A DNA stretch of 64,000 bases from Pseudomonadota bacterium (GTDB taxonomy: Bacteria; Myxococcota; JACRCW01; JAFGSX01): NCBI GenBank assembly GCA_043821645.1, contig JBDRCO010000046.1, positions 1 through 64,000 on the forward strand, given 5' to 3'. Below the pieces are notes generated by a model. It had not been told where the DNA came from. It saw nothing but the letters and a program-made list of their open reading frames with translations, and did no database searches. Position numbers and translations under genes: made by a program. Shown here one piece after another: positions 18,069 to 43,106 of the stretch. Numbering within the stretch: position 1 is the first letter of the stretch; the number at the start of each line of letters is the position of its first letter.

Positions 18069-18109
18069 GCTTTACCTGCCCGTGACGTCGGGCCCGCGCC
18101 AGGGCCTCT

Positions 18110-19429: not shown

Positions 19430-19433
19430 GGTT

Positions 19434-20324
19434 CTACAGGTCCCGGCACCAGCCGTAGGGAAGGTTGAGACTCTCGGCACCCTGCAGGGCGATGCAGTTC
19501 TGGCCCGCGCTGCATGCGGGCTGCGTGCCCGGGTTCCACAGGTTGCAGTACTTGACGCAGAACCCGGACCCACCACAGACATTGCCCCGGGTGCAAAAGC
19601 GATTCTGTGCCGGGTCATTGCTGCAGGGATCGCCCTCGCCCTGGGTCCCGGTGTCAAAGCACACCCCGAACTCGTTGGTCGGATTGAGGGGGAGGCCCCA
19701 CAGCTGCGGGATGTGCTCGCAGTTCTGCTGCGGCGCGCAGCACAGCACACCGTCGGGAACCGGCGGATTCTGGCACAGCTGATTCTGTTCGAGCAGCGTG
19801 CACATGGGATTGCACAGGCCGCTGCCCTTGCCGTGGAACTCCAGGCACACCTCGCTCGACAGGCAGGTGCCGACGCTGGTGCCGTCGTCACGCTCGCCGC
19901 AGTTGCCCTCTTGGCAAAAACCCAGCTCCTGGTCGGGATCGAACCAGCACAGCTGACCCAGGCCGCACTTCGCAAAATCCGGGAAATCGCAGCGCGGCCG
20001 GCACACGCGCTTGCAGTTGCAGGTCTTGTTCCGGCACAGGTACTTGTCGTCTCCCTCGGGCCCGCAGCTCGCCGCGGTGTCGCAGGCGGTGCGGGCGCTG
20101 TCGTCGCAGTAGGCCTCGGCGCAGACACTGCTGTCGACGCATTCTCCGGTGTCCAGGCAGGCCTCGCCGATCTGCTTGACCCCGGACTTGACGCACAAAC
20201 CCTCGACGCAGGTGAAGCCAGGCTTGCACTCGCCGATGGCAGTACAGGGCCTGTTGTCCTCGGAGAAGATGTAGCAGCCCGTCGCCAGCGGGAGCAGCGC
20301 GAGGGCCGCGGAGATGCGCATCAT
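19434..20324 (-). CDS. Cys-rich lipoprotein
   Basis: MMRISAALALLPLATGC lipobox, very dense Cys modules; start overlaps the upstream stop (ATGA). Confidence 0.75.
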   Translation of the reverse strand: MMRISAALALLPLATGCYIFSEDNRPCTAIGECKPGFTCVEGLCVKSGVKQIGEACLDTGECVDSSVCAEAYCDDSARTACDTAASCGPEGDDKYLCRNKTCNCKRVCRPRCDFPDFAKCGLGQLCWFDPDQELGFCQEGNCGERDDGTSVGTCLSSEVCLEFHGKGSGLCNPMCTLLEQNQLCQNPPVPDGVLCCAPQQNCEHIPQLWGLPLNPTNEFGVCFDTGTQGEGDPCSNDPAQNRFCTRGNVCGGSGFCVKYCNLWNPGTQPACSAGQNCIALQGAESLNLPYGWCRDL

Positions 20325-21826
20325 CGGCCACCTCCCGCCGCCACCGGCATCCAGGCCGCACCGTCGCCGCCGGACCCGGGCGTGGCGAGGATGGTCTCGA
20401 CGTTCTCTTCCTCGGTGCCCGCGATGATGAACAGCACCACGGCCGTTGTGGCCAGCAGCGCGGTCACCGCGTAGCCCGCGGTGGCAATGAAGACGTCGCG
20501 CTGGCCCACGCCCATCAGATCCGGCGAACGCGGATCGATCTGCGGCATCTTCGACAGCTTGTCGTTGATGTGGACCGCCGAGATGGTGAACACGATGCCC
20601 GCGGCCAGGGGCAGGACGCCCACGCCGAGCGACACACCGCCCCACAGGAAGCCCGGGTGCAGGGGCCTATCCGGTCGTTGCGGTGCGTAGCCCGAGCCGA
20701 TCTGGCCCGAGGTGCCCTGGCCCGAGCTCACCCCGAGCTGGGCCTGGCGGAACTCGGTCAGGATGAACTCCTCGACGTTGGCGCGGAAGCGGGGCGAGCT
20801 GTAAGCGAAGGTGCGGGTGGCGGCGTGCAGGCGCTGCCCGGCCCCAGCGTCGTAGTGGGCCGCCTGCAAGGTCACGTCGTCACCGGAGGCGGTGACCTGC
20901 ACCAGCATGAGCTGGTCGACCTTGAACCAGGCTCCCAGCTCCTTGGTCGCGCTGCCCATGCCGTCCTGGGCCGCCTCGGGGCCCGCGCGGCGGACCAGAC
21001 CCTCGAACTGCGCGGCCTGGGCTGTGGGCTTGAGCGCGGCCTGCAAGGTCTCTTCGCTGTTCGCCACCAGCTCCACCACCTTGCCATATCCCTGGTAACC
21101 CGCGCGGTACAGCCGCACCAGGTGGCGGCCCGCAGGCAAGCGATCCACGGTCAAGGGCGACGAGCCGCGGAACACGCCGTCGACATAGACTTCGGCCGCA
21201 GCCGGGTTGGCATAGACAGACAGGGTGGCCTGTGCCGCCTGACCCACCTGCTCGCGCGCCTCCTCGTACAGCTCGAGCACGGTCGGCGGAAAGCCGCTGC
21301 CCTCGAGGGTGGCGCGGCGGTCGACCAGCAGGGCACGGGCAAAAGCGCTGCGCGCGCCGCTGCGGTCCGCCTTGAGGGCAGAGGTGGCACCCAGCATCTG
21401 CAGCGCACGCAGGTAAGGCGTGACGTCGACCAGGGCGCCGGCGCCGCGCTCGAAGGCGATCACGGCCTCGGTGAGCGTCGCCACCGCGGGCTCCAGCTCG
21501 AAGGCGTCATACATCTCGCGGCCGCGCTGCAGCTTCTCGAGACCCTGCAGCACCAGTGCACGCTCGGGCGGTGGCGCGTCACCGCTGAGCAAGCCCTCGA
21601 CGTCGAGCGGGCTGTAGCGCGGGTTCCGCTCGAAGCTCTGGCGCACCAGGTGGTCGACCAGCACGGCTTGCTGGGCCGAGGAACTGTCCCTCGCCAGGGC
21701 GAGGCTGGCGATGGAGATGCCCTCCCCCTCGTCCGCGAGGGCGCTTCCCGGCAGCCATCCCGCCAGCCCGATCGCAGCCATCCAGAGCGTCGTGCGCACG
21801 CGCCACCTCATGGTCCAGTACATCAT
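20321..21826 (-). CDS. PEGA-domain protein with TPR-like helices and C-terminal TM segments
   Basis: Signal peptide; LSVYANPAAAEVYVDGVFRGSSPL...LPAGRHLVRLYRAGY PEGA pattern. Confidence 0.85.
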   Translation of the reverse strand: MMYWTMRWRVRTTLWMAAIGLAGWLPGSALADEGEGISIASLALARDSSSAQQAVLVDHLVRQSFERNPRYSPLDVEGLLSGDAPPPERALVLQGLEKLQRGREMYDAFELEPAVATLTEAVIAFERGAGALVDVTPYLRALQMLGATSALKADRSGARSAFARALLVDRRATLEGSGFPPTVLELYEEAREQVGQAAQATLSVYANPAAAEVYVDGVFRGSSPLTVDRLPAGRHLVRLYRAGYQGYGKVVELVANSEETLQAALKPTAQAAQFEGLVRRAGPEAAQDGMGSATKELGAWFKVDQLMLVQVTASGDDVTLQAAHYDAGAGQRLHAATRTFAYSSPRFRANVEEFILTEFRQAQLGVSSGQGTSGQIGSGYAPQRPDRPLHPGFLWGGVSLGVGVLPLAAGIVFTISAVHINDKLSKMPQIDPRSPDLMGVGQRDVFIATAGYAVTALLATTAVVLFIIAGTEEENVETILATPGSGGDGAAWMPVAAGGGR

Positions 21827-27950: not shown

Positions 27951-29461
27951 GTGGTGGCCTCGAACAGGGCCACCGGGCGCGAGCGACGGGCGCCGAGGTC
28001 GGCGGCCAGCTGCTTGCGAAAGCGCAGGTGGCGCCGGCGGCTGAGCTCGACCAGGGGCGCCCACACGCGATGCACCAGGCGCTGTCGGATGAGCCGGGGC
28101 CACAGCCAGTTGGCCTTCTTGTACAGAAAGGACATGCCCAGGTAGGTGGGCAGAGCCGAGAGCTGCGCGGGTCGGCGGCGCCAGATCGAGGCCAGCGAGA
28201 AGGTTTTTCGATACAGCCTGGCGTAGCCGGCCTCGAGCTGCTCGGGCGTCATGCGCGCGGGCTGGAACACGCAGTGACCCGTGTCGTACAGGTCCCAGTC
28301 GCGGTGCAGCAGCCGGCCCTCGGCGGCCAGGCGCTCGAACAGAGGCGTCCCCGGGTACGGGGTCAGGATGTGGTAGGTGGCGCACTCCAGGCCCACGGCG
28401 TCGACCCAGGCGGCGAGGCGGTCAAAGACCTCGGGCCCGTCGTGGTCAAAGCCGAGCACGAAGCTGCCGTTGACCTGAATGCCGTAGCCCTGAAACAGGG
28501 CGATGCGGCGAGCGTAGTCGTCAGCGCGCGGGCTCTTCTTGCCGGCGCGGGCCAGGTTGTCGTCGTCCAGGCTCTCGAAGCCGATGAATACTCCCGTGCA
28601 GCCGCTCATGGCCATCTCGCGCACCAGCTCCTCGTCGTCGCTGACGTCCAGCGACACCGCGGCGCTCCAGATCACGCCCAGGGGTTCGAGAGCCTGGCAC
28701 AGGGCGCGCAGGTAGCTCTTCTTGCTGCCCAGGTTGTTGTCGATGAACACGCCGTAGGGGTGTTTTCCGTCGACGAACTGCTGCACGACCTTGTCGATGG
28801 CCAGGGTCTGATACTTCTGGCGTGGTCCGGTACTCAGCAGACAAAAGTCGCAGCGGTGGTGGCAGCCGCGGCTGGCCACGAGCGACAGCGGCGTCAAGAA
28901 GGCCCAGGGCGGCAGCTTGGAGCGATCGGGCAGAGGTTCGTCGTCGTAGCAGGTGTACGCGCCCAGGTAGCGCGGTCGCAACGTACCCTCGTCGACGTCG
29001 TGCAAGATTTTTGGCCAGGTGATGGCTCCGTTGCCCACGGCCACGGCGTCGGCGTGAATCTGCATCTCGTCCGCGCAGGCCAGGGCGTGCAGGCCACCCA
29101 GCACCACGATGCTGCCGCGGGCCCGGAACCAGGCTGCGAGCGCGTAGGCGCGGCGGGCAAAGGTCAGGTGCACGGTGATGCCCACCACCTGGGGCACGTC
29201 GTTGACGGGGACGGGTCCCTGCAGCAGGTTCTCGTCCCACACCCTGACCTGCCAGTTCTCGGGCGTGGCGCCGCACAGGGCACTCAGGGTCAGAGCCGGG
29301 GTGAGCACGTGCTTGCCGAAGCTGGTGCGCGGGTCCTTCGGGTAAAAGGGCGCCACCAGCAGGGCGGTGCGTGGCACGGGGGTGCCCCGAACGGCAGCTG
29401 GCAGAGCCGGGGCCTGCAGCATGTCGACGGGGGCGCGGCGCGGGGCGAGGGCGGTGGTCAT
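27947..29461 (-). CDS. Cobalamin-binding radical SAM protein
   Basis: VVLGGLH B12-domain motif; ASRGCHHRCDFC; FIDNN, IGFES, LTPYPGT; GGGAGG RBS before MTTALAP. Confidence 0.92.
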   Translation of the reverse strand: MTTALAPRRAPVDMLQAPALPAAVRGTPVPRTALLVAPFYPKDPRTSFGKHVLTPALTLSALCGATPENWQVRVWDENLLQGPVPVNDVPQVVGITVHLTFARRAYALAAWFRARGSIVVLGGLHALACADEMQIHADAVAVGNGAITWPKILHDVDEGTLRPRYLGAYTCYDDEPLPDRSKLPPWAFLTPLSLVASRGCHHRCDFCLLSTGPRQKYQTLAIDKVVQQFVDGKHPYGVFIDNNLGSKKSYLRALCQALEPLGVIWSAAVSLDVSDDEELVREMAMSGCTGVFIGFESLDDDNLARAGKKSPRADDYARRIALFQGYGIQVNGSFVLGFDHDGPEVFDRLAAWVDAVGLECATYHILTPYPGTPLFERLAAEGRLLHRDWDLYDTGHCVFQPARMTPEQLEAGYARLYRKTFSLASIWRRRPAQLSALPTYLGMSFLYKKANWLWPRLIRQRLVHRVWAPLVELSRRRHLRFRKQLAADLGARRSRPVALFEATT

Positions 29462-29695
29462 GGGATCCTCCCTGGTGCTGAGACCAGGGTAGGGCAAGGC
29501 GCCCCCTCGACGGGGCGCGCTCCGCGCCAGCGGCCAGGACTTGTGGACGAGCGGTCGCCAGGGCGCCCCGAACGGTCGACAGCGCTGGGCGCCGGCCACT
29601 TGGGTGCCACCGGCGCGGAGCTGGGTGATAACCTGGGGCCAAGCCTCGGTAACGAAGCGTGGGCGCGCGCGGCAGCGCACGCAGGAGGGTGTCAC

Positions 29696-32600
29696 ATGCG
29701 TCGAGTGGACGGGAGTGTGCAGGATGCGCGCCGGGCGTGTGCGCTGGTGCTGATCGCCGTGGGCTGGGCCGGTTGCGAGCCCGCGGACACGAGTTCGGAT
29801 GACACCGGCGGCCATGTCACGGTCGACGCCGGCCGGGTTGACGCCAGCACGCTGGACGCGGTGGTCGGGGATCGCGGAGGCCAGGATGCCGCTGCGAACG
29901 ACAGCGCCGTGCCGGATGGTGCGCCCGCGGATGCTGCGACGGACGCCGCGATGCCCGACGCGGCCGGCCCAGACACCTTCAACGCGCCGCCCGTCGCTGC
30001 CATCGTCGAGCCGGCCAGCGGTGCCCGCTTCCACATCGGCGAGACCGCCAGCTTTCAGGCCAGCTGCGCCGACGCGGACAACGACCTGCCGCTGACCCAC
30101 GCCTGGGACTTCGGTGACGGCCAGACCAGCGTCGAGGCCGAGCCCCAGCACGCCTTCGCCGCCACCGGTCGCTTCGAGGTGAGCTACCAGTGCAGCGACG
30201 TCCGCGGCGCATCGTCGGCACCCGTCACGCGCAGCGTGCAGGTGACCAACGCCGCGCCGACCATCACCTGGATCGACCCCTCGGACGGCGCCGTGCTGCT
30301 CACCGGCACCGAACTCACTCTCGCCGTCGAATGCAGCGACGCCGACGACCCCGGGTCGCCGGGCGTCGAGTGGACGCTGGATGGGCAGCTGGTGGCCGGC
30401 AGCGGCGCGACGCGTCACCTGCCGCTGGTGTCCGCGACCACCCACCACATCGCGGTGCACTGCAGCGATCCCTGGGGCCTCACGGACAGCGCCCAGCGCA
30501 CCGTGCAGGTCGAGGACCCGCCGGTCGCGCTCTACCTTTCGACCGAGAACCAGGTCGAGTACAAGCAGGTGCTGTGGGCGGCGGCGCCGGGCAGCCCGGT
30601 CGTGCTCAACCAGGCCCTGTTCGCGCCGGGAGGGCGGGTCGAGAACTTCGTGCTGGCCGCCGGTGACGTGTTCTACGTCGCCGACCACAGCATCCAGGGT
30701 CGGCAGCAGCTGTTTTGCGCCAACCTCGCCGATCCCAGCAGCCCGGACGTCGTCAGCGCCCCCGCCCGGCAGGGCAGCGTGGTCAACCTGCTGGCCAGCC
30801 CGGACGACCGAGGCTTCGCCTACCGCGTGCAGCAGAACGTCGCCAATCAGTGGGAGCTGTACTGGGTCGACGCCACGCAGGTCCCGCCCACGCCCCGCGT
30901 CCTCAACCCGCCCCTGGCTGCGGACGAGAGCGTGTTTGGCTACCAGTTCTCGAGCACCGGGCGCTACCTGGTCTTCTGGACCCACGCCGCAGCCTTCGAT
31001 ATCTACCTCGTCGACCTGCACAGCGGAGGCGCCGCCGTGCGCGTGCTGGACGACGTCGGCTTGCTCGTGCCCCCCGCGGCCTTCTCGACGGACGACGCCT
31101 ACGCCGCGGTGGGGAGCACCCAGGACGGCCTGGTGCTCGAGCTGGCCACCTTGGAGCAGGCGACACCGAACCAGGCCACCTTCTACAGCAACACGCGCGC
31201 CTACCTTTCGGGTTTCGCCTTCGTCGGTGGTCAGCCACTGCTCGCCTACGTGGCACGCACCGGCACCATCCCGACCCTGCGCGTGGTTGATGCTGCCGCG
31301 GCCCTGGCCGCGTCCAGCGAGCTCAATGTCGAGGTCTTCAGCGCCGCTTCCGTCGCACAGTCGGGCGGCGACCTGCCGCTGCGCGTGTGCGGCGACGAGG
31401 TGGTGTTCTCGGCCAAGGTCAACACGAGGTTCGAGCAGCTGTATCGTGTGAATCTGACGGCCTGGGTCGCGGCTTACCGTGCCAGCCCGGGCAGCCAGAC
31501 CGCGCCGGTCCAGCTCAACCCCACCTACACGGGCAGCGAGACCTCCTACCTGCGGCTCTCGGCCTGGAAGCCTGACTGCTCGGGCATCGCCTACATCGCC
31601 AAGATCGACCACGACGCGGAGCCGACCACGCCCGAGCAGGAGACGCTGCTGTTCGTCGACTGGCCGCACGCCGGCGCGCCCACCCGCGTCTCGGACAGCG
31701 GCAGCTTCGTCACCGGCGGCGCCTACCCCGACCTCGCCTTCGCGCCCGACGGGCAGACGCTGATGTGGGGTGTGTCCGATGGGCCCCGGCGCGCCTGGGT
31801 GAGCCCCGTCGACACGCCGGCCCCGACCCTGGTGGCGGCGACCCTGGATGGCGCGATCGATGAGGCGCTGTGGCTGGACAGCCACACGCTGCTGCTGTCG
31901 GTCACCGCGGGTGCAGATGCGGGCCTCTTCCGCTGGGACCGCGATGCCCCCTCGACGCCGACCCGGGTCTCACCCGACGTGGCGGACCTCGCATCCTGGT
32001 CGCTCACCGTCGACGCCAGCACCGTCGTCTACCGCCGCGACTACAGCGCCACCGCGCGCCAGCTCAACCGGGTCGCGCTGGCCACGCCGGGGGTCGAGGT
32101 CAAGATCAACGGCGATGGCACGGCCAATGGCGCCCAGGTGTACCGGGCCGCGCTGGCCAACGCGGGGCAGACCGTGATCTTCGCGGCCGTCAACGACAAC
32201 AACAGCCAGACCCAGCTGTACGCGGTCGAACCGGACGCGCCCGGCGTGGTCCAGCGGCTGTTCCCGTGGGATCCGGATCCGGCGGTGCTCACCACCTGGT
32301 CCTTCGAGGTCCTGCCGGCCACCAACCAGCTGCTGTACCGCGGCTACCAGGATGGCGCCTGGCTCCTGTTCCAGACCCCGCTGGACACCCTCGGACCGCC
32401 GGTTCAGGTCGACCTCGCGCCGGCCACGGCCGTGTTCGAGCTGCTGGCCACCTCCCCCAGCGGCGAGCACGTGCTGTTCCACGGCGTCAGCGGGAGCACC
32501 AGGCACCTGTACCTCAAGAGCCTGACCCGCAACGAGCCAGCGGTCGAGCTCAGCGCCGCGACGGTGGCCTCCTCGTACACACATCAGTTCTCGCCCTCGG

Positions 32601-33547
32601 GGCGCTACGTCGCCTTCGTCGCCAGCGGCAGCCCGGCCCGCGCCTTCCTCGCCGACACCGCGGACCTGGCCAGCGGCGCGGTCGCCCTCACCCCAGCCGC
32701 GCTGCCGGACCACCTGCCCCTCTCCATCGAGAACGGTACCCCGGTGTCGACCCAGGGGAGCCGCCAGGTCGTGTTCTCGCCGGACGAGGCCTGGGTGTAC
32801 CTCGCCTACGACGAGACCTACGCCGCGCACTTGAAGATCGTGCGCAAGCCACTGCCCGCGCTCGACGTCGAGACGGTGGTGAACGGGCCTGTCGTCGACG
32901 GGGACGCGATCGCCACCTGGGCGCTGAGCGGCGACGGTGGCCACGTCGTCTACCAAAAGCGCAGCTTCGATGGTCAGACCAGCACGGCGGACCGGCTCTA
33001 CGTCGTCGACGTGGACGCCAGCGTGGGCAGCGAGCGCTTGCTGGGCCCGGCCTTCCCGCATGGCTCGCCGGGCGTCCAGAGCTACCAGCTGCTGGGTGGC
33101 TTCGTGGCAATGCGCGCCACCGACGCCCCTCCCAGCGGGACCAACCTGCACCTCGCGGCTCTGGACGGCGCGACCCCGGCGTGGACCGTCAACGCCGCGC
33201 TGACCAGCGAGAACTATCTGGCGTTCCTGGGGGTCTCCACCATCGGCGCCGCCACCTACGTGGCCTACACCGCGCAGCAAGACGGGGACGCGGCAGCGCG
33301 TGTCTACATCGCGCGCCATGATGGCGAACAGGTGCGGCGGGTCGCCGTCAGCCCGGGTTCACCGGACAGCCCGCACGCCGCGGTCTCGGCCGACGGGCGC
33401 TGGCTGTGGTCGGTGCACGCCGCGGCTGGCATCAGCGATGGCCTGCATGTCACGGCGCTGTCCGATCCGGCGGCGGCGCGTCTGCGCATCGGCGGCGTGC
33501 CCATCGCCAGCGGCATGGCCGACCTGCCATCGGCCAGCCTGCCCTGA
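29696..33547 (+). CDS. Large lipoprotein with PKD domain(s) and TolB-like beta-propeller repeats
   Basis: AGGAGG RBS; lipobox WAGC; WDFGDG PKD motif; repeated SPDD/FSSTG/FAPDG/FSPSG/FSPDE blades. Confidence 0.8.
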   Translation: MRRVDGSVQDARRACALVLIAVGWAGCEPADTSSDDTGGHVTVDAGRVDASTLDAVVGDRGGQDAAANDSAVPDGAPADAATDAAMPDAAGPDTFNAPPVAAIVEPASGARFHIGETASFQASCADADNDLPLTHAWDFGDGQTSVEAEPQHAFAATGRFEVSYQCSDVRGASSAPVTRSVQVTNAAPTITWIDPSDGAVLLTGTELTLAVECSDADDPGSPGVEWTLDGQLVAGSGATRHLPLVSATTHHIAVHCSDPWGLTDSAQRTVQVEDPPVALYLSTENQVEYKQVLWAAAPGSPVVLNQALFAPGGRVENFVLAAGDVFYVADHSIQGRQQLFCANLADPSSPDVVSAPARQGSVVNLLASPDDRGFAYRVQQNVANQWELYWVDATQVPPTPRVLNPPLAADESVFGYQFSSTGRYLVFWTHAAAFDIYLVDLHSGGAAVRVLDDVGLLVPPAAFSTDDAYAAVGSTQDGLVLELATLEQATPNQATFYSNTRAYLSGFAFVGGQPLLAYVARTGTIPTLRVVDAAAALAASSELNVEVFSAASVAQSGGDLPLRVCGDEVVFSAKVNTRFEQLYRVNLTAWVAAYRASPGSQTAPVQLNPTYTGSETSYLRLSAWKPDCSGIAYIAKIDHDAEPTTPEQETLLFVDWPHAGAPTRVSDSGSFVTGGAYPDLAFAPDGQTLMWGVSDGPRRAWVSPVDTPAPTLVAATLDGAIDEALWLDSHTLLLSVTAGADAGLFRWDRDAPSTPTRVSPDVADLASWSLTVDASTVVYRRDYSATARQLNRVALATPGVEVKINGDGTANGAQVYRAALANAGQTVIFAAVNDNNSQTQLYAVEPDAPGVVQRLFPWDPDPAVLTTWSFEVLPATNQLLYRGYQDGAWLLFQTPLDTLGPPVQVDLAPATAVFELLATSPSGEHVLFHGVSGSTRHLYLKSLTRNEPAVELSAATVASSYTHQFSPSGRYVAFVASGSPARAFLADTADLASGAVALTPAALPDHLPLSIENGTPVSTQGSRQVVFSPDEAWVYLAYDETYAAHLKIVRKPLPALDVETVVNGPVVDGDAIATWALSGDGGHVVYQKRSFDGQTSTADRLYVVDVDASVGSERLLGPAFPHGSPGVQSYQLLGGFVAMRATDAPPSGTNLHLAALDGATPAWTVNAALTSENYLAFLGVSTIGAATYVAYTAQQDGDAAARVYIARHDGEQVRRVAVSPGSPDSPHAAVSADGRWLWSVHAAAGISDGLHVTALSDPAAARLRIGGVPIASGMADLPSASLP

Positions 33548-33590
33548 GCCGGGTGGCGTAGGTCGCCGTGCCCGGGCTGCGGGGTTCGAC

Positions 33591-34100
33591 TCAGCGGGAG
33601 TCGTCGCCGGGTGGGGTGTAGCGGACCTCGACGATGGTGAACAGGGTCTCGCCCTTGGGCCGCTTCACCTTGACCTCGTCGCCCTCTTCCTTGCGCAGCA
33701 GGGCGCGCGCCATGGGCGAGTTCATGCTGATGTAGCCGCGGTCGGCGTCGCTCTCGTCCGGGCCGACGATGCGGTAGGTGGCCTCGTTGCCGTCCTCGTC
33801 CTCGAGCGAGACCCAGGCGCCGAAGAAGACCCTGTCCTGCTGCCGGGGCACCTCGGTGACGACGGTGAGCTGGTCCAGGCGCTTGCTCAGCCAGCCCAGG
33901 CGGCGGTCGATCTCGCGCAGGCGTTTTTTGCCGTAGATGTACTCGGCGTTCTCGGAGCGATCGCCCTGGGCCGCGGCCTCGCCGACCTCGCGCGTGACCT
34001 TGGGGCGCTCGACTTTCCACAGGTACTCGGCCTCGCGCGCCAGCCTCTGGTGCCCCTCGGGGGTGATGTAGACGGTGCTCTTTTCGTCCAAGGGACTCAC
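33591..34100 (-). CDS. greB: Transcription elongation factor GreB
   Basis: YITPEG...LWKVERP...[26 protein letters not shown]...VFFGAWV...[15 protein letters not shown] overlaps the murA stop. Confidence 0.95.
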
Positions 34101-35386
34101 GCTTCGTCGGAGATGCGCTCGATGCGCGCGCCCAGTCCCACCAGGCGTTGCTCGATGGCTTCGTAGCCGCGGTCGATCTGCTCGACGTTGAGGATGCGGC
34201 TCTGGCCCTTGGCGGCGAGGGCGGCGATGAGCAGCGCCATGCCGGCGCGGATGTCGGGACTCGACAGGGTGGCTGCGGAGAGCGGTGACGGGCCAACCAC
34301 TACCGCGCGGTGTGGATCGCACAGCACGATGCGCGCACCCATCGAGATCAGCCTGTCGACGAAGAACAGGCGGCTTTCGAACAATTTTTCGTGGATGAGC
34401 ACGGTGCCGCTGGCCTGGGTCGCGGTGACCAGGGCGATGGACGTCAGATCCGCTGGAAAACCCGGCCACGGTGCGTCGTCGATCTTGGGGATGGCGCCAC
34501 CGAGGTCGGCCTGCACCTCCAGACGCTGGCCGCCGGGCACCAGCAGATCCTCTCCCTCGCGCACGGTTCGCACACCCAAGCGTCTGAAATCCATGAGTAT
34601 TTTACGCAGGTCCGTGCCGCCCACGCCGCGGATACGCAACTCACCGCCGGTGACTGCGGCCAGGCCCATGAAGGAGCCGATCTCGATGTGATCGGGACCG
34701 ATGCGGTGCTCGACCTCGCCGTGCAGCGCGCCACCTTGCACCCGCAGCACGTTGCTGCCCACGCCGTCGATGCGTGCGCCCATGGCCTGCAGCAGGTGAC
34801 ACAGACCCTGCACGTGGGGCTCGCAGGCCGCGTTGTAGATGATGGTCTCGCCCTCGGCGGCAGCCGCGGCCATGACCGCGTTCTCGGTCGCCATGACGCT
34901 GGCCTCGTCGAGGAAGATCTCGGCGCCCTTGAGCGGGCCGCGCACGCTGAGCACGTACTCGGCACCCACCTCGATGGTGGCACCGAGAGCGGACAGGGCG
35001 AGCAGGTGCGTGTCGACGCGGCGGCGTCCGATGCGATCGCCCCCCGGGCGCGGCAGGCGGATGTGACCGCGACGTGCCAGCAGCGGCGCTGCCAGCAGGA
35101 AGCTGGCGCGGATGCGTGCGCAGAGCTCGGGGTCGGGCTCCTGATCGCCGAGGCTTCGCGGGTCGATGCGGACCGTGTGGGGGTCGAGCCAGTCGACGTG
35201 CGCACCGAGCTTCTCGACGATGCTGATCTGCCAGCGCACATCGCCGATGCGAGGCAGGTTGCGCAGGGTGACCGGGCCCGAGGCGAGCAGGGTGGCGGCC
35301 ACCGCGGGCAAGGCCTCGTTCTTGTTGCCTGCGGGCACCACGGTGCCCTGGATGGGCGCGCCGCCCTCGACCACGAATTCGATCAC
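34097..35386 (-). CDS. murA: UDP-N-acetylglucosamine 1-carboxyvinyltransferase (Asp-type)
   Basis: [65 protein letters not shown] then GTG. Confidence 0.95.
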
Positions 35387-35632
35387 GCTGTTGCTCCTTG
35401 CGTCAGGGCCGCTCCGTCGACGGCGAGCCGAACGTTTGCGCGTGCTGTGCACTGTAGCCAACCTGCGCCAGCGTGTCATCTAGGGGTCGCCGACTCGACC
35501 GGGCCAGCGGCCGGTCCCTGCCGGTCCTGCTCAGGGTCTTTTTCCTGGCGCGATCCTCTTCCCCTCGTCGTTGCGGCGGAGTAGCGTGCCCCCGCTTTTG
35601 TCGTCGCTGCGGCGGCGGCACGGAGAGCGAGA

Positions 35633-37594
35633 ATGTCCATGGACTACGCGCAGGTCGGTCTCAAGGTCGGGCTCGAGGTGCACCAGCAGCTGCTCACCGA
35701 GCGCAAGCTGTTTTGCCGCTGCCCGGCCGGACGCTACACCCGCACCCACGACGGCGAGGTGCTGCGCCACATGCGGCCCACCCTGAGCGAGCTGGGCAGC
35801 TACGACGGCACCGCGCTCATGGAGTTCAAGACCAAGAAGAACATCATCTACCTGCTGCACAAGGACAACGTCTGCACCTACGAGATGGACGACACGCCGC
35901 CCTTTCTGGTCAACCAGCAGGCCATCGACATCGCCATCGAGCAGTGCCTGATGCTGGGCTGCGACATCGTCGACGAGGTGCACATCGCCCGCAAGCAGTA
36001 CCTCGACGGCAGCATCCCCACCGGCTTCCAGCGCACCGCCATCGTCGGCGTCAACGGACGCTTGCCCTTCGCGGGTCGCGAGCTGTCCATCATCCAGGTC
36101 AGTGTCGAGGAGGACTCGTGTCGGGAGGTCGAGGATCGCGGCCACCTGATCGTGTGGCGCGCCGATCGCCTGGGCATGCCCCTCATCGAGACGGTGACCG
36201 GACCCGACCTGCGCACTCCTGACGAGGTGGCCGAGGCCATCCTGCTGGTGGGCCGGGTGTGCCGCTCCACCGGCCACGTGCGTGTGGGCCTGGGCGCCAG
36301 CCGCCAGGACGTCAATGTCTCCGTGACCGGCGGCACCCGCGTCGAGATCAAGGGTGTACCCAAGGCCTCGTGGGCACCACGGCTGGTGCACTGCGAGGCG
36401 GTGCGCCAGGTCAACCTGCTGGGCCTGCGCGATGAACTCGCGCAGCGTGGATTCAAGACCGAGGCCGACCTGCAGCTGCGCTCGGTGGACATCACCCAGC
36501 TCGTCGACGCCAGCGAGCTGACCATGCTGCATCGCGAGGAATGGGAACGCTGGGTCGAGACCAGCGGTCGGCGCGCCGGCTTCGAGCTGGGCCGGGGCGA
36601 CTACTGCGTGCGCGCGGTGCGCCTGGTTGGCCTGCAAGGCACCCTGAGCTGGCCCACCCAGCCCGACCGGACCTTTGCCAGCGAGCTGGCCGGGCGCATT
36701 CGCGTCATCGCGGGTCTCGACCAGCAGCCCGTGCTCATGCACAGCGAGAAGTGGCCCGAGCACCACGGCTCGGTCCGCCTGCTCAAGGAGATCCGGCGCC
36801 GCCTGCGCTGCGGTCCCCAGGACAGCATCGTGGTGGTGTGGGGACCCCACGACGACACCCTGAGCGCGGTCGAGGAGATTCGCCTGCGCTACATCGACGC
36901 CCTGGCCGGTGTGCCTGCCGAGACGCGTCAGCCCTTCGTCGACGGCAGCACGGACTTCGAGCGCATCCTGCCCGGCCCCGATCGCATGTACCCGGACACC
37001 GATAGCCCACCCACCCGGGTGCTGCGCGAGCGGGTCGAGGGTCTGCAGCGCGGTTTGCCCGAGCCTCCCTGGACGCGCGAGCAGCGCTACAGCGAGGCCA
37101 GGCTGCCGCTCCCCGTGCTGCGCTTTTTGATCCGGCGTGGGGGCGCGGCGCTGGTCGACGAGGTGGTGCGCGTCACCGGCGCGGACCTGCGCTGTGCGGG
37201 GCTGTTCTTCGGCGCCCAGCTCAAGGGGCTCGGGCGCAGCGGTGTCGACATCCCCAAGATACCGGTGGGGCGCTGGTGTGAGCTGTTCACCGCTTTTGCG
37301 GCGCAGCCCGTGCTGTGGCAGGCCTGGCAGCCCATGGTAAGGGCCCTGGCGGCCTTCACGGATGCCAGCGTCGACGATCTCATCGCGCGCCAGGGCCTGG
37401 GCACGGCACCCGAGGACTGGCACCAGCATGTTCAGCGAGGCGTCAAGCAGGCGCGGATCGAGAGCTACGATCCGGGTGATCGCGGCCGACTGCACCGCCT
37501 GGCCCTGGGGCGCTGCATGGATCTGCTGCGCGGGCGCGTCGACGCTCGCGAGGTGAGCGAGGCCGTGAAGGCCGCGATCGAGGTGAGCGCATGA
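35633..37594 (+). CDS. gatE: Glu-tRNA(Gln) amidotransferase subunit E
   Basis: DYAQVGLKVGLEVHQQL..RKLFCRCP; DGSIPTGFQRT; EEDSCR; DRLGMPLIE; RQDVNVS..GGTRVEIKGV; a long insertion (GAD-like) absent from GatB; GVPAETR...LPGPDRMYPDTD. Confidence 0.93.
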   Translation: MSMDYAQVGLKVGLEVHQQLLTERKLFCRCPAGRYTRTHDGEVLRHMRPTLSELGSYDGTALMEFKTKKNIIYLLHKDNVCTYEMDDTPPFLVNQQAIDIAIEQCLMLGCDIVDEVHIARKQYLDGSIPTGFQRTAIVGVNGRLPFAGRELSIIQVSVEEDSCREVEDRGHLIVWRADRLGMPLIETVTGPDLRTPDEVAEAILLVGRVCRSTGHVRVGLGASRQDVNVSVTGGTRVEIKGVPKASWAPRLVHCEAVRQVNLLGLRDELAQRGFKTEADLQLRSVDITQLVDASELTMLHREEWERWVETSGRRAGFELGRGDYCVRAVRLVGLQGTLSWPTQPDRTFASELAGRIRVIAGLDQQPVLMHSEKWPEHHGSVRLLKEIRRRLRCGPQDSIVVVWGPHDDTLSAVEEIRLRYIDALAGVPAETRQPFVDGSTDFERILPGPDRMYPDTDSPPTRVLRERVEGLQRGLPEPPWTREQRYSEARLPLPVLRFLIRRGGAALVDEVVRVTGADLRCAGLFFGAQLKGLGRSGVDIPKIPVGRWCELFTAFAAQPVLWQAWQPMVRALAAFTDASVDDLIARQGLGTAPEDWHQHVQRGVKQARIESYDPGDRGRLHRLALGRCMDLLRGRVDAREVSEAVKAAIEVSA

Positions 37595-38985
37595 CGACCG
37601 CCGATGCACTGAAGGGGTACCGGGGTCGGGCCCGGGAGCGCTTGACCGAGCTGGGCGTGCGCGTGTGGAGCGATGTGCAGCTCACCAACGACGCGGGCAG
37701 CGTGTTCGAGGGCGTGATCCTGCCGCGCAGCGTGACCTTCGACGACCTGCACGTCGTGCTCAAGCTGAAGACAGGCTACAACGTGGGCGTTCACGTCGAC
37801 CGCATCACCAAGGTGACCGAGGTCGGATACAAGGAAGCCCACTACAAGATTCCCGAGCAGGAGTTCCCCAGGCGCGACAACCTGCCCAGCGTGACGCTGC
37901 TCGGCACCGGCGGCACCATCGCCTCGCGCCTGGACTACCGCACCGGCGCGGTGATCCCGGCCTTCACACCGGGTGAGCTGTATGGCGCCGTGCCCGAGCT
38001 GGCCGACATCTGCAACCTGACCACCAAGAAGCTGTTCGGGGTCTTTTCCGAGAACATGGCGCGCGAGGAGTACATCACCCTGGCGCAGGCCATCGGCGAC
38101 GAGATCGCGGCCGGCGCCGACGGCATCGTCATCGGCCACGGCACCGACACCATGGGTCATACCGCGGCCATCTTGTCCTTCATGGTGCAGGAGCCGCCGG
38201 TCCCCATCGTCATGGTGGGCAGCCAGCGCTCCAGCGACCGGCCATCGTCGGACGCGGCGCTCAACCTGATCCACGCGGTCAACACCGCGGCCTACAGCGA
38301 CATCGCCGAGGTCATGATCAGCATGTTCGGTCCGACCTCGGACCGCTACGGCCTGCTGCATTGCGGTACGCGCTGCCGCAAGATGCACAGCTCGTATCGC
38401 TCGACCTTCCGCACCGTCGGCGACATCCCTCTGGCCACCGTCAGCCGCGATGGCTTCACACCCATCACCGAGATCTACCGCCACCGCGACAAGACGCGGC
38501 GGGTGAAGATCGACGCGGTGTACGACGACCGCACCACCATTCTCTATTACTACCCGGGCATGCACCCCGACCTCGTCGACGGCCTGGTCGAGAAGGGCTA
38601 TCGCGGCATCGTCATCGCCGGCACGGGTCTGGGCCACATCAACAAGCCCCTGTACCCAGCCATCAAGCGCGCGGTGGACGCCGGTGTGCACGTCGTCATG
38701 ACCGTGCAGACCCTGTGGGGCTACGCCCAGATGTACGTGTACGAGACCGGCCGCGAGCTGCTGAACCTGGGCATCGTGCCCCTGGACAACATGCTCCCCG
38801 AGACCGCGCTGATGAAGCTGAGCTGGGTGCTCGGGCACGAGGGCCTGTCGCGCGACGAGGTCGTGCGCATGATGCAGACCTCGATCAACCGCGAGATCAC
38901 GCCCCGCGAGCCACACAACGGCTACCTGATCATGCAGGGCGGCCTGCCCGAGATGGACGAGTACATCGCCACCCACTGGAAGTGA
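37591..38985 (+). CDS. gatD: Glu-tRNA(Gln) amidotransferase subunit D
   Basis: N-terminal KLKTGYNVG domain, then TGGTIASRLDYRTGAV, HGTDTM, VGSQRSSDRPSSDA, RKMHSS, GTGLGH, MLPETALMKLSW; ATGA-coupled to gatE. Confidence 0.95.
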   Translation: MTTADALKGYRGRARERLTELGVRVWSDVQLTNDAGSVFEGVILPRSVTFDDLHVVLKLKTGYNVGVHVDRITKVTEVGYKEAHYKIPEQEFPRRDNLPSVTLLGTGGTIASRLDYRTGAVIPAFTPGELYGAVPELADICNLTTKKLFGVFSENMAREEYITLAQAIGDEIAAGADGIVIGHGTDTMGHTAAILSFMVQEPPVPIVMVGSQRSSDRPSSDAALNLIHAVNTAAYSDIAEVMISMFGPTSDRYGLLHCGTRCRKMHSSYRSTFRTVGDIPLATVSRDGFTPITEIYRHRDKTRRVKIDAVYDDRTTILYYYPGMHPDLVDGLVEKGYRGIVIAGTGLGHINKPLYPAIKRAVDAGVHVVMTVQTLWGYAQMYVYETGRELLNLGIVPLDNMLPETALMKLSWVLGHEGLSRDEVVRMMQTSINREITPREPHNGYLIMQGGLPEMDEYIATHWK

Positions 38986-38992
38986 CCGGGAG

Positions 38993-39012
38993 ACCGCGAG
39001 GCTGCCTCGCGA
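38993..39012. terminator. GC hairpin between convergent gatD and hydrogenase genes
   Basis: CGCGAGG-ctg-CCTCGCG; no U-tract. Confidence 0.4.
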
Positions 39013-40290
39013 TCAGTGCACCGAGCAGCTGATGCAGGGATCGTAGGCCCGCACCAGCATCTCGCACAGCAGCGTGGCCTTGCTGTCGTCGACGCCCTGC
39101 CCGGCCAGCCAGGGTGCGAGTGCTTGCAGGTCGAGGTGGATGTTCTTGTTGTTCTGGGTGGTGGGGATCACGCAGTCGGCCTTCTGGATGCATCCTTCGC
39201 CGTCGATCTCGTAGCAATGGTAGAGGATGCCGCGCGGTACCTCGACCGCGCCCACGCCGCGGCCAGCGCGAGGCTGCACCGGCACCTGGATCTCGCCCCG
39301 GGGATTGGCCAGCACCTCGTCGATGAGGCGGATGGTGTCGTGGGTGACGTGCACGCACTCGACCAGCTGCGCCACGCTGTTCATGTAGGGGTTGTGGCAG
39401 ACCGGCTTGAGCCCAAGCACGGCCGCGGTTTGCCGCGCCTCGTCGTGCAGCAGCGCGAAGTTGTTGTTGATGCGTGCCAGGGCACCCACCCCGAAGCTCG
39501 GCCGTGACAGAGAACACCACTTGCTGGTGTTGTCGTCGGTGACCACCTCGTTGGTCATGGCCAGGTACTCGGGCTCCTGCTTGAGCACGCCGTCGCTGGA
39601 AACCAGGTCGCCGCCAATCCAGGGGAAGCTGGCCGTGCCCTTGAGCGACACCCACTCGGTCTCACGCACGAAGTCCGGGATCGCGAAGGTGCTGAACAGG
39701 CCCACCACCGTGGCCTCGAGATCGGCCAGCGAGCTTTCGAGCTGATCGCGCAGGCGCTTGAGGGTGTCGCCATCCGGGCGCCGGGCCACGCCTCCGGGAA
39801 CCAGCGACACGGGGTGGGTGGTGCGGCCTGCGATCACGTCGCACAGCTGGTTGGCCATGCCCTTGAGCTGGCGCGCCAGGTGAAACACCTCGGGGTTCTT
39901 CTCCTGGAGCGGGAGCGCCGAGGGCAAGCCCAGGAAGTCCGGCGCGGCCAGGAAGAACAGGTGCAGGTAGTGGCTCTGCAGGGTCTCGCCATGCTTGGCG
40001 AGCAGCCGCAGCGTGTCCGCCAGGGGTGGGGTCACGATTCCCATCGCGTGCTCGGTGGCGCGCAGGCTGCACAGCGCGTGCCCGATCGAACAGATGCCGC
40101 AGATGCGCGCGGTGAGCTGGGCCGCGCTCGAGAAGTGCTTGCCCCGCAGCATGACCTCGAAGTAGCGGGGGGTCTCGACCACCTCCCAGCGCGCCTCGAC
40201 CAGCTGTCCATCCCGGACCTGAACGTGGATGTTGCCGTGGCCCTCGACCCGAGCCAGGTGATGCACATCGACGTTGAGATCGACCTTCAT
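39013..40290 (-). CDS. [NiFe]-hydrogenase large (alpha) subunit, group 3b sulfhydrogenase type
   Basis: ARVEGHG, L1 ARICGICSIGH, EVPRGILYH, L2 RAYDPCISCSVH. Confidence 0.95.
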   Translation of the reverse strand: MKVDLNVDVHHLARVEGHGNIHVQVRDGQLVEARWEVVETPRYFEVMLRGKHFSSAAQLTARICGICSIGHALCSLRATEHAMGIVTPPLADTLRLLAKHGETLQSHYLHLFFLAAPDFLGLPSALPLQEKNPEVFHLARQLKGMANQLCDVIAGRTTHPVSLVPGGVARRPDGDTLKRLRDQLESSLADLEATVVGLFSTFAIPDFVRETEWVSLKGTASFPWIGGDLVSSDGVLKQEPEYLAMTNEVVTDDNTSKWCSLSRPSFGVGALARINNNFALLHDEARQTAAVLGLKPVCHNPYMNSVAQLVECVHVTHDTIRLIDEVLANPRGEIQVPVQPRAGRGVGAVEVPRGILYHCYEIDGEGCIQKADCVIPTTQNNKNIHLDLQALAPWLAGQGVDDSKATLLCEMLVRAYDPCISCSVH

Positions 40291-41081
40291 GCGCTCACCT
40301 CGTGCTCGGGACTGCCCATCCTGGTGGCGGGTGGCTGCGCCGTGAAGCCGCCAAAGAACCCCAGACGCTCGCCAAGTTCCGTGGTGGAGAACCCCCTGTC
40401 CAGGGCGATGCGGCAGAACTCGTCGACGTTGGCTTCGTCGCTGGGGCCGCGGCAGCCCCAGCACGCCAGGCCGCCGGCGGGACAGGGCGCATCGCAGCCG
40501 CCGCGGGTGATCGGACCCAGGCACAGCTGACCGCGGTCGAAGGCGCAGGTCACGAAACGTTGCTTGCACTCGACGCAGACCGGGTGGCGCGGGAAGCGAA
40601 AGGGGACGCCCCACACCAGGTGCTGCACGATGCGCTCGACCTCGCGCTTGCTCACCGGGCAGCCCGGTATGGCGAGGTCCACCGCCACCACCTCGTGCAC
40701 CGCGCGCACGGTCGTCGTGGGTTTGGGGTGATCGCCGTACACGATGCGGTTGGCCTCGTCCAGGTCATAGGCGTTCTTCTGTCTGGCCACCCCGCCGAAG
40801 CAGGCACAGGCGCCCAGGGCCACCAGGGTCTTGGCGCGCGCGCGCACCCGGGTGAGGCGTTCCACCTCGTCCGCGCGGGTGATGGCGCCCTCGATGAGCG
40901 CCACGTCGTAATCGTCACCGTGGGCCGAGCTCACCTCGCGAAAGTCCACCACCTCGATGAGGTCGAGGAAGTGGTGCAGGCTGTCCTCCTTGTTGGCCAG
41001 CTGCAGCTCGCAACCCTCGCAGGAGGTGAAGTCGAACACCGCGATCTTGATCTTGTTGGGCGTGATCCCCAGGTAGCGCAT
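40287..41081 (-). CDS. Group 3b hydrogenase small (delta) subunit
   Basis: FTSCEGC, IEGA, ALGACACFGG, IPGCP, VCVEC, CLGPITRGGCDAPCP..CWGCRG. Confidence 0.93.
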   Translation of the reverse strand: MRYLGITPNKIKIAVFDFTSCEGCELQLANKEDSLHHFLDLIEVVDFREVSSAHGDDYDVALIEGAITRADEVERLTRVRARAKTLVALGACACFGGVARQKNAYDLDEANRIVYGDHPKPTTTVRAVHEVVAVDLAIPGCPVSKREVERIVQHLVWGVPFRFPRHPVCVECKQRFVTCAFDRGQLCLGPITRGGCDAPCPAGGLACWGCRGPSDEANVDEFCRIALDRGFSTTELGERLGFFGGFTAQPPATRMGSPEHEVSA

Positions 41082-41109
41082 GCCTGAACCTCGTCGAGAG
41101 ACGGTGCTA

Positions 41110-42066
41110 TCAGATCGCTTCTTTCAGGTTCATCACGGTCCAGAAATCGAACACCGGACCGTCCTGGCACACATAGGTCGACCCCACGTTGCAGCGGCAG
41201 CACTTGCCCATGCCGCAGTGCATGCGCCGCTCCAGCGACACGAACATGCGATCCATGGGCATGCCGAGCTGGCTCAGCCGCTGGCACACGAACTTGAACA
41301 TCACCGGTGGTCCGCACACGATGGCGTAGGTGCGCGCCATGTCCAGGTCGAGGCCGTCGAGCAACTTCGTCACCATCCCGACGTGCCCCGTCCACTGCGG
41401 CGTCGGTTTCTCGACCACGATGTCGAGCTGCACGCCGTCGACGCGGCGCCACTGCTCGTACTGGTAGTCGAACAGCAACTCGTCGGGCTCGCGGGTGCCG
41501 TACAGGATGTGCACCTGCTCGTAGTCCGAGCGGTTCTCGGTGACCGCGTAGATGGGCGCGCGCAGCGGCGCCAGCCCCAGGCCGCCGGCAATGAGCAGCA
41601 CGCTGTGGCCCTTCATCTTGTCCAGGGGAAAGTGCGAGCCAAAGGGTCCGCGGAGGCCGACCCGGGTACCGCGCCGGGCCCGATGCAGCACGCTGGTGAC
41701 CAGGCCAGCGTTGCGGATGCACAGCTCGAGGTAGCCCTTGTGGGACGGCGAGCTCGAGATGGAGATGGCCACCTCGCCGTAGCCTGGCACCGCGACCATC
41801 ACGAACTGCCCGGGCAAGAAGCCAAAGCGTTGCCGCTCCTGATCATCGTCGATGCGAAGGTGAAACAGCTTCTCCTTGTCGGTGAGCGGGACGATGGAGG
41901 TGATGGTGGCCGGGTACAGGCGGTCCACGTGCTTGAGCCGGCTGCGCCGGTTGTAGTCCACCGGCTCGAGCATCTCGGTCTCGCGCTTGATGTCGAAGGC
42001 GTGCAGCACCGGAGTGTGGGGGGCCGAGGGCGGGGTCCCGGGCTCGCGCGGCGTGGAGCTGTTCAT
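41110..42066 (-). CDS. Group 3b hydrogenase gamma subunit (FAD/NAD(P)-binding, 2Fe-2S)
   Basis: [53 protein letters not shown]. Confidence 0.93.
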
Positions 42067-43106
42067 GTGCGATCCTCGTCTTGCAGGTCGCGGATGACCT
42101 CGGGCGGGTTGATGCCGGCCAGACAGGCGCGACTGCAGCGGCCGCAGCCCACGCACTTGGGCTCCTCGAAGCTCTCCACGAAGCCGCGGTGCTGGTGGTA
42201 GTAGCGGTACTTGAGCCGCGTGCCGCTCTTGGGCCTGAAGTTGTGGCCGCCCGCCACCTCGGCGAAGTCGATCAGGTTGCACGAGTACAGCTGCTTGACC
42301 CTGGCGCTGCTGCCGTGATCCAGGGCCACGCGCTCGTGGACGCCGTAGCAGTAGCAGGTGGGGCAGACCATGGCGCAGGCTCCGCAGCTCAGACACTTCT
42401 GCCCCCAGCGCGTCCACACCTCGCTCTCGAACTCGATGTCGAGCAGGTTGGGCAGGTTCTCGGTCTGCACCACCGTGTCGAAGCCCTCGCTGTTGTCGCG
42501 GCGCACGCGGAGGTACGCGTCGCTGTCCTCCTCGGTCACATCGCGGGGGCCGACCTTCTGCAGCATGGTGAAGGCGCGGTCCGAGGCGATGGCCACGAAG
42601 TAGCGGTCCCCGAGATCGGTGAGGAACAGGTCGAAGCCATGGGTCGCGCTGTCCGCGCCCATGGAGCGGCAGAAGCCGCCCTTGCAGGGCTTGTGGTCCA
42701 GGCCCACGACGAAGGTGTTGCGCCGCCGCGAGATGTAATAGGGGCTGGGGAAGAAGTCCCGGGCCAGCACCTTGTCCAGCTTGACCAGCGCGTTGATGTC
42801 GCAGGCATGCAGTCCGATCAGGGCCCGCGGCTGCAGGCGGTAGCGGATGTCCTGCTCCCAGCCGTCGTCGTCAAAGCGAAAGGTCGACAGGTTCTCCTTG
42901 AAGGGCAAGAAGTAGGTCTTGGCCGAGTACTCGGTGGTCTCGTAGTCCAGGTCCAGCGCGTCGAAGCTGGTCACGGGCAGGAACTGGTGAATGGGCTGCC
43001 CGTCGCCGCGCTGGCCTATACACCTGGGGCCAATGACCTCGTTGGTGCTCAGGATCAGCTCGACCAGGTTGCGAAACAGCGGCTTGTCCAGCACTCGGAA
43101 CAGCAT
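42063..43106 (-). CDS. Group 3b hydrogenase beta subunit (AsrA-like, 4Fe-4S dicluster)
   Basis: [35 protein letters not shown]. Confidence 0.92.

Follow-up and report, generated by a model that had tools for sequence, protein, structure and literature searches.

Transfer RNA-dependent amidotransferases of the GatDE type have been described as a hallmark of archaea. The enzyme 'occurs exclusively in archaea' according to a passage of PMC2811023 (2009) and is 'an archaeal signature protein' in a passage of PMC2330236 (2008); reviews up to 2022 likewise restrict it to archaea, and attribute the failure of archaea to adopt GlnRS, which they are described as lacking (PMC9499178), to the co-evolution of GatDE with A1-U72 tRNA-Gln. 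Its substrate is a tRNA-Gln with A1-U72 as the first pair (PMC2330236). The bacterial enzyme GatCAB reads U1-A72 tRNAs and serves Gln, Asn or both according to the synthetases present (PMC2811023, PMC2330236). Here we analyze a gatE-gatD pair located on a bacterial contig, JBDRCO010000046.1, whose first 64 kb (64,000 nt, positions 1-64,000) are referred to as the window and provide all coordinates unless another locus is named.

The pair is predicted to encode an intact two-subunit tRNA-dependent amidotransferase and belongs to a large bacterial GatE-GatD clade, which is annotated in databases yet not discussed in the open literature that we searched, including the reviews to 2022. Our full-text searches, which cover few subscription journals, found no paper reporting a bacterial GatDE. 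A large monophyletic clade of this kind contradicts the archaeal-signature picture, standing beside GlnRS, facing U1-A72 tRNAs and lacking the archaeal discrimination motif, and it raises the question of what purpose a second tRNA-dependent amidotransferase serves. Our tentative answer, to which we assign a probability of about 45%, is that enzymes of the bacterial clade act on U1-A72 tRNAs in the manner of GatCAB, amidating Asp-tRNA-Asn and possibly Glu-tRNA-Gln too, and are tied to asparagine supply. If this is true, a new enzyme would join the known asparagine routes, and the reading of asparagine auxotrophy and of gatDE annotations would change in thousands of uncultured genomes. The window pair alone is an ordinary, fully redundant member; what makes it of interest is the clade as a whole and the hypothesis on its function, which can be tested.

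The gatE-gatD pair of the window

The initial annotation had taken two ATGA-coupled open reading frames (ORFs) for a complete archaeal-type GatE/GatD pair, and ORFs with exactly these boundaries (Table 1) passed the curated cut-offs. The GatE ORF scored 460.3 bits on the GatE model NF003107 (cut-off 456) and 395.3 bits on TIGR00134 gatE_arch (cut-off 319.55), and the GatD ORF 480.6 bits on NF003217 (cut-off 310) and 477.9 bits on TIGR02153 gatD_arch (cut-off 324). An assignment of GatE as GatB was ruled out by scores of 109.7-128.6 bits, far under all cut-offs of the GatB equivalog models (314.8-338). The GatD ORF was also over the cut-off of a wider subfamily model for type I asparaginases (345.2 vs 260.5 bits), but a free-standing type I L-asparaginase was ruled out by the GatD_N domain, the higher scores on the GatD models and the translational coupling to gatE. 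Thus, the GatE and GatD models outscored those of GatB and plain asparaginase, the two assignments that would have spoken against the initial call. The motifs on which that call was based were found in the translations, namely GFQRT, RQDVNVS and LPGPDRMYPDTD in GatE and KLKTGYNVG, TIASRLDYRTGAV and SQRSSDRPSSD in GatD.

Pfam detected GatB_N alone in GatE, and GatD_N (PF18195, 43.5 bits), Asparaginase and Asparaginase_C in GatD; some close GatE homologues carry PF02637. The long insertion that had been called GAD-like is present in GatE and could be aligned to solved archaeal GatE chains only, but no GAD domain was detected there by Pfam. Both subunits aligned end to end with the archaeal enzymes of Pyrococcus abyssi (1ZQ1) and Methanothermobacter thermautotrophicus (2D6F), with E values of 4.7e-89 (1ZQ1_C) and 1.4e-83 (2D6F_C) for GatE and 5.8e-113 (1ZQ1_A) and 9.4e-109 (2D6F_A) for GatD. 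GatE residues 3-649 match 1ZQ1_C from residue 8 to 627 and 2D6F_C from residue 1 to 615, covering the full architecture of cradle, insertion, helical domain and YqeY-like tail. The bacterial GatCAB (e.g., that of Staphylococcus aureus, 3IP4) catalyzes the same overall reaction, but its ammonia donor is the amidase GatA with GatC in place of the asparaginase-type GatD. GatE, which reached 128.6 bits on the best GatB model, is paralogous to GatB and differs from it, apart from the low scores, in the extra insertion domain and in the absence of the 3-10 turn.

The window pair keeps the two subunits of the archaeal enzymes in the same domain order, including the GatD N-terminal domain, together with their catalytic residues. 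In the M. thermautotrophicus enzyme, the Mg2+ ligands of GatE are H15, E157 and E184, mutation of which abolishes activity (PMC2330236); H17, E159 and E186 are the aligned residues of the window GatE. Among the bacterial-clade rows of the GatE alignment, E159 and E186 occur in 74/74 and H17 in 72/74, the two others being rows whose N-terminus was not recovered by extraction. The asparaginase Thr nucleophile and the Thr-Asp-Lys set are also retained in GatD, as initially annotated: T106 (TGGT), T185-D186 (HGTDT) and K264 (RKMH) are invariant in 59/59 bacterial GatD rows. Because the catalytic residues are all retained, the pair would be expected to follow the chemistry of the solved archaeal enzymes. 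GatD, an asparaginase-type amidohydrolase, would free ammonia from Gln or Asn, and GatE with ATP and Mg2+ would activate a mischarged aminoacyl-tRNA by phosphorylation of its side-chain carboxylate and amidate the phosphorylated product with the ammonia released by GatD.

In contrast, the elements related to tRNA discrimination have changed. The archaeal GatE tail motif GXXAXGX has been implicated in the rejection of Asp-tRNA-Asn. By our own mapping of the motif on the GatE sequence, which uses two archaeal references only, the tail reads GMGAMG in both solved chains and DRGRLHR in the window; the window GatE thus appears to be without the motif, which is absent in 74/74 bacterial-clade rows. 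The positive loop before GLGxxRQD, a short replacement of the GatB 3-10 turn beside the first base pair, is KVKRG or RVKRG in the solved archaeal chains and HVR[V/T]G in the window subclade, with one charge lost. In addition, GatD has a conserved C-terminal tail extending about 18 residues past the ends of the solved archaeal chains, in which P441, G444, Y445, Q449 and G450 are found in 59/59 rows.

The host, a soil or groundwater-type bacterium of the Myxococcota (genome G000), differs from the GlnRS-less archaeal hosts of GatDE in possessing GlnRS (728.9 bits; cut-off 425.8). A true GatCAB coexists with GatDE in this genome, with GatA (565.4 bits) and GatB (527.5 bits; C43:32242-33663) encoded side by side. 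AsnRS (454.7 bits), one full-length GluRS and one bacterial-type AspRS are also present, and profile searches found three AsnB and no AsnA. Among the 48 tRNA genes predicted by ARAGORN in the assembly, tRNA-Glu and tRNA-Asp carry G1-C72. Both tRNA-Gln genes (CUG and UUG) carry U1-A72 as expected by the initial annotation for a bacterium, not the archaeal A1-U72, so the host GatDE cannot read the archaeal identity pair. As GlnRS and GatCAB are present, GatDE is not needed by the cell for Gln-tRNA, and the non-standard glutamine route initially suggested does not apply. From the inventory of synthetases, amidotransferases and tRNAs, GatDE is surplus for Gln-tRNA and Asn-tRNA alike; it is accessory and redundant in this genome.

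This redundancy, together with an assembly of 140 contigs and an estimated contamination of 3.95%, could be taken to mean that the pair has no function and is being lost from the genome, or is an artefact of a contaminant contig or a chimeric join in a metagenome-assembled genome (MAG; 7.07 Mb, 94.7% complete). We regard this as highly improbable, and it is largely refuted already. The 151.6-kb source contig has a GC content of 0.685, similar to the other contigs of the genome, and 2-kb windows over gatE and gatD range from 0.677 to 0.699 (0.643-0.712 over the whole window). Both frames are open with intact catalytic residues, and the ratio of nonsynonymous to synonymous substitution rates (dN/dS) stayed below 0.45 against four orthologues (0.19-0.44 by the NG86 method, with dS probably saturated). 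G001, the one further genome of this family, carries a collinear gatE-gatD with 76% DNA identity. In sequencing run X1, which may be the source sample of the assembly, exact-match contigs span the murA-gatE (35198-35848) and gatE-gatD (37064-37691) junctions. The gatD-hydrogenase junction is spanned by exact-match contigs in X1 (38476-39052), X2 (38770-39124) and X4 (38885-39132), representing three studies; joints seen in metagenome contigs matched at 90% likeness have one side of only 20-52 letters and were not taken as variants. Thus, independent contigs bridge both outer junctions, at which a chimeric assembly had initially been considered. The GatE-GatD pair is real, intact and under selection, and is not an assembly artefact.

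Distribution and phylogeny of bacterial GatE

The pair is not a singular event of this genome, and the initial annotation had foreseen that a bacterial GatDE clade would lower its novelty without changing the call. The best 120 of at least 8000 scored candidates in a protein search were all 68-75% identical to the window GatE and already named GatE by NCBI and JGI. Source names were shown for part of these matches and were all bacterial, including Acidobacteriota, Vicinamibacterales, Eisenbacteria, Deltaproteobacteria and Pseudomonadota. GatE relatives occur in at least 589 species genomes of GTDB, searched with one genome per species (589/598 matched stretches confirmed), and an exhaustive search of 1.84 billion cluster representatives gave 622 at E 1e-30 or better. 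Eighty loci kept from the GTDB relatives cover Acidobacteriota, Myxococcota, Ignavibacteriota, Bacteroidota, Zixibacteria, Planctomycetota, WOR-3, Cloacimonetes, Fermentibacteria, Krumholzibacteria, Omnitrophota and others, plus two Thermoplasmata-labelled MAGs. In 61/80 loci gatD lies directly downstream of gatE on the same strand, an operon that distinguishes them from archaeal GatDE; it is upstream-divergent in 1/80 and unseen in 18/80, eight of which end about 125 bases or less from the GatE match. In the two archaeon-labelled loci gatD does not adjoin gatE. Bacterial GatD is uniform in length (461-464 amino acids in 56/62) and shares 57-84% identity with the window GatD.

We constructed a tree of 179 rows comprising the window GatE, 71 full-length named loci, 106 representatives and the host GatB as outgroup; it is to be read with the caveats that it comes from FastTree only, that the outgroup is a single long branch, that named archaea are few and that the composition of many rows is unusual. 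All 69 named bacterial GatE fell in one 104-row clade (Shimodaira-Hasegawa-like support 100), apart from archaeal GatDE. The sister of this clade is a representative whose 90%-identity cluster includes a Heimdallarchaeota protein (support 98), whereas Thermoprotei- and Parvarchaeota-named cluster representatives are in a separate 66-row clade. This topology fits the inter-domain transfer envisaged by the initial annotation, but the transfer is not special to this genome. The window GatE belongs to a tight 29-row subclade of Acidobacteriota and Myxococcota (support 100), with 69% identity to its family-mate G001 vs 70-72% to acidobacterial GatE. From this position, the window copy most likely reached its lineage from a bacterial donor.

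The two Thermoplasmata-labelled GatE are nested within the bacterial clade. The MAGs behind them, titled Thermoplasmata or Thermoplasmatota (G089 for L076 and G091 for L078), encode GlnRS with 733.2 and 728.4 bits, well over the NCBIfam cut-off; the combination of GlnRS and GatE could be a real bacterial-to-archaeal transfer or come from mis-binned contigs.

Apart from gatD, no neighbour of gatE is conserved in the 80 loci, the next-largest real gene cluster being found in 8, and adjacency to murA, greB or hydrogenase genes is seen in 0/80. These neighbourhoods bear on whether the pair has been repurposed outside translation to amidate another carboxylate, either on a tRNA-bound precursor of a natural product or cell-envelope component or on a non-tRNA substrate. 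Such a function would suit the accessory behaviour of the pair, which is patchy within a genus and redundant with the full direct and indirect routes in the window genome, as well as the altered tRNA-recognition elements of the archaeal enzyme. However, the loci provide no biosynthetic cluster context, the adjacency to murA is not conserved, and GatE matches the solved chains over its whole tRNA-binding architecture; we therefore consider repurposing improbable. Within the interpretation offered by the initial annotation, an adapted tRNA specificity or a repurposed amidotransferase is most likely the part that holds.

Glutamine and asparagine routes in GatDE genomes

We compared the occurrence of the direct and indirect routes in 61 Myxococcota genomes, of which 9 have GatE over the cut-off and 52 are GatE-negative, and in a wider set of 48 bacterial GatE genomes of other phyla behind the named loci, whose completeness figures are not part of the data. 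GlnRS and AsnRS were found in 9/9 GatE-positive Myxococcota, and GatB in only 3/9. In family f4, GatB was found in 0/8, GlnRS and AsnRS in 8/8 and GatE in 6/8 genomes. GlnRS was present in 37/48 genomes of the wider set, 26 without and 11 with a GatB match; GatB alone was found in 5, and neither gene in 6. In one GatB-positive genome of this set, the gene is partial and lies at a contig end. Most bacterial GatDE thus occur in genomes with GlnRS, and because GatDE is patchy within genus g6 (2/3 genomes) it behaves as an accessory gene.

A link to asparagine supply is suggested by the genomes short of other asparagine routes. AsnB is missing from 10/61 Myxococcota, and in these genomes GatB and GatE replace each other, five having GatB without GatE, five GatE without GatB and none both, which likens GatDE to GatCAB; AsnA is present in two of the five with GatE. 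Only G015, G031 and G051 (97, 95 and 93% complete) among the 61 genomes have no AsnA, AsnB or GatB, and all three carry GatDE (3/9 GatE-positive vs 0/52 GatE-negative genomes). A recheck of the three at E 0.001 returned only matches of about 50 bits to the N-terminal amidotransferase domain, and no AsnA. The same three genes are not found in 9/48 GatE genomes of the wider set. Within genus g6, G005 has AsnA and AsnB without GatDE, and G031 and G051 show the reverse. The gatED contigs of the latter two are collinear with a G005 contig ending in asnA: gatE-gatD follows a shared GH57 glucanotransferase gene after 252 bp, where G005 has a gene for a trypsin-like peptidase, followed by asnA.

PMC4206432 provides a precedent for this gene content. 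Bdellovibrio bacteriovorus, Thermus thermophilus and Deinococcus radiodurans combine GlnRS, AsnRS and an amidotransferase without AsnA or AsnB, as do G015, G031 and G051. In Bdellovibrio, synthesis of Asn on tRNA had been predicted from the combination with GatCAB, and its single AspRS was shown to charge tRNA-Asn in vitro. Since the genome logic is the same, G015, G031 and G051 may be read as synthesizing asparagine on tRNA, with the difference that the three described bacteria use GatCAB for this purpose, whereas GatDE hosts would use GatDE, a function not needed in the window genome. GatDE would provide tRNA-dependent asparagine in GlnRS-containing hosts and constitute a redundant back-up in the window host, beside GatCAB and AsnB. 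A stronger version, which we consider rather unlikely, is that the clade is not a glutamine enzyme in most hosts. In that case an enzyme of Asgard-like archaeal origin would have lost the element rejecting Asp-tRNA-Asn, gained the reading of U1-A72 and turned into a GatCAB-independent asparagine machine on tRNA-Asn, interchangeable with asnA, asnB and gatCAB.

Several points weigh against asparagine supply as the function of the clade. According to PMC2330236 and PMC2811023, archaeal GatDE is strictly a Glu-tRNA-Gln enzyme that rejects Asp-tRNA-Asn, and modelling indicates that a transamidosome would bring AspRS into a steric clash with the insertion domain of GatE; the window GatE keeps this insertion. 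Another asparagine route is present in 6/9 GatE-positive Myxococcota, in 39/48 genomes of the wider set and in the window genome (three AsnB and GatCAB), and as this is so for most GatDE genomes, asparagine supply cannot explain the retention of GatDE everywhere. The signal comes from 3 genomes in 2 genera of one family, whose kinship means that they are not independent, and the gatED/asnA swap site was compared on one flank, all three contigs ending at the far flank. AsnRS is nearly universal (over the cut-off in 45/50 genomes, with two of the misses being frameshift-split genes), and there is no solid case in which GatDE must make Asn-tRNA-Asn. No extra archaeal-type AspRS2 was over the cut-off in G000, G015, G031, G051 or G005, each of which has one bacterial-type AspRS, and non-discrimination of AspRS or GluRS is not readable from sequence markers. 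ARAGORN found no tRNA-Asn gene in the host assembly. The neighbours of gatE in some loci also point to glutamine: 2/60 loci scanned (L036 and L086, from related Deltaproteobacteria-labelled MAGs) have a U1-A72 tRNA-Gln(CUG) gene 129 bp upstream of gatE and in the opposite orientation, glnS adjoins gatE divergently in the myxococcotal genome G037, and a glutamine-synthetase-family gene is directly beside gatE-gatD in 4/80 loci from four differently labelled lineages (Table 1). Genomes without AsnRS and GatB calls are neutral in this respect, as G064 and G082 have frameshift-split AsnRS genes and only the fragmentary 2.5-Mb G101 is without AsnRS.

The glutamine-related neighbours would be accounted for if GatDE is solely a Glu-tRNA-Gln amidotransferase that has adapted from A1-U72 to U1-A72, providing a second indirect route to Gln-tRNA-Gln beside GlnRS or clearing Glu-tRNA-Gln made by a leaky GluRS. 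We hold this to be possible, although we lean against it. Both subunits score over equivalog models named for this function, and Glu-tRNA-Gln amidation is the reaction of all characterised homologues (PMC2330236, PMC2811023). Moreover, GatDE would be the sole route to Gln-tRNA in the 6/48 genomes in which neither GlnRS nor GatB was found, but this fraction is near the background of missed genes, as 2/52 GatE-negative Myxococcota (G002 and G010) show the same. A purely glutamine-directed enzyme requires a non-discriminating GluRS in GlnRS-containing cells, in which GluRS is expected to be discriminating (PMC2978374). Only one full-length GluRS was found in GatE-positive Myxococcota and a GluRS2 in none of them, the extra matches being GlnRS cross-hits or GluQ-like fragments of about 300 amino acids. 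The GluRS of the GatDE-less G005 must discriminate because this genome has no Glu-amidotransferase, and the GluRS of G031 and G051 share 88-89% identity with it (91% for AspRS), with no signal of divergence. Arg358, a discrimination marker in T. thermophilus GluRS (PMC2978374, PMC3927822), had no discriminating power here, the aligned residue being Arg in 32/33 Myxococcota GluRS including those of GlnRS-less genomes. Finally, the complementarity with AsnA, AsnB and GatB and the loss of the tail motif would be left unexplained.

In G002 and G010 (92 and 95% complete), where GlnRS, GatB and GatE were all not found, no Gln-tRNA route is visible; the searches may have missed the genes, the genes may have diverged, or another system acts.

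Surroundings of the operon

Table 1. Positions of the gatE-gatD operon, its surroundings and genes adjoining gatE at other loci
Feature	Position	Strand	Remark
Divergent intergenic region murA/gatE	35480..35632	+	GGAGAG Shine-Dalgarno-like run 6 bases ahead of gatE ATG
gatE, tRNA-dependent kinase/amidase subunit, bacterial GatED clade (predicted)	35633..37594	+	653 aa
ATGA overlap of gatE stop codon and gatD start codon, translational coupling	37591..37594	+	reads gcATGAcg at 37589-37596
gatD, asparaginase-type ammonia-releasing subunit (predicted)	37591..38985	+	464 aa
NiFe hydrogenase gene set	39013-42417	-	group 3b-like (sulfhydrogenase-type)
Hydrogenase large subunit	39013-40350	-	
Long open frame	28028-33547	+	1839 aa
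tRNA-Gln(CUG) gene beside gatE	L036 and L086: 5801-5872	-	U1-A72
glnS and gatE region of G037	G037:C53:16835-20340		glnS 18754-20340 (+); gatE 16835-18565 (-)
Glutamine-synthetase-family genes beside gatED	L068:74-1675, L086:9235-10935, L106:4329-5936, L108:4514-5938		Gln-synt_N and Gln-synt_C by Pfam on the L086 member

The bacterial character of the neighbours noted in the initial annotation was borne out by profile searches. The murA gene (447 bits) flanks gatE on the minus strand with its start at 35479, and greB (218 bits) and a gene for the large subunit of a sulfhydrogenase-type NiFe hydrogenase are also among the flanking genes. An Rfam scan of 33000-41000 at E 0.1 gave no matches, a scan for promoters and terminators at the operon found nothing convincing, including no convincing plus-strand sigma-70 site in the murA/gatE intergenic region, and no RNA run was among the sequencing runs listed as holding the locus.

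The hydrogenase gene set is convergent with gatD, and its large-subunit gene is followed by ORFs that look like a small subunit and FAD/NAD-binding proteins. The long open frame at 28028-33547 encodes a C-terminal part that is acidic, repeat-rich and beta-propeller-looking, and its true start is probably well inside the frame. Elsewhere in the host genome, ARAGORN reported one tRNA with a four-base anticodon (ggtg) and no assigned identity, and a tRNA-Sec is also present. G082, from which L061 comes, has one GatE-like match on contig C21 and a separate one on C31, and its AsnRS gene is split into three frames; the doubled GatE likely reflects long-read frameshift errors or a second gatE copy.

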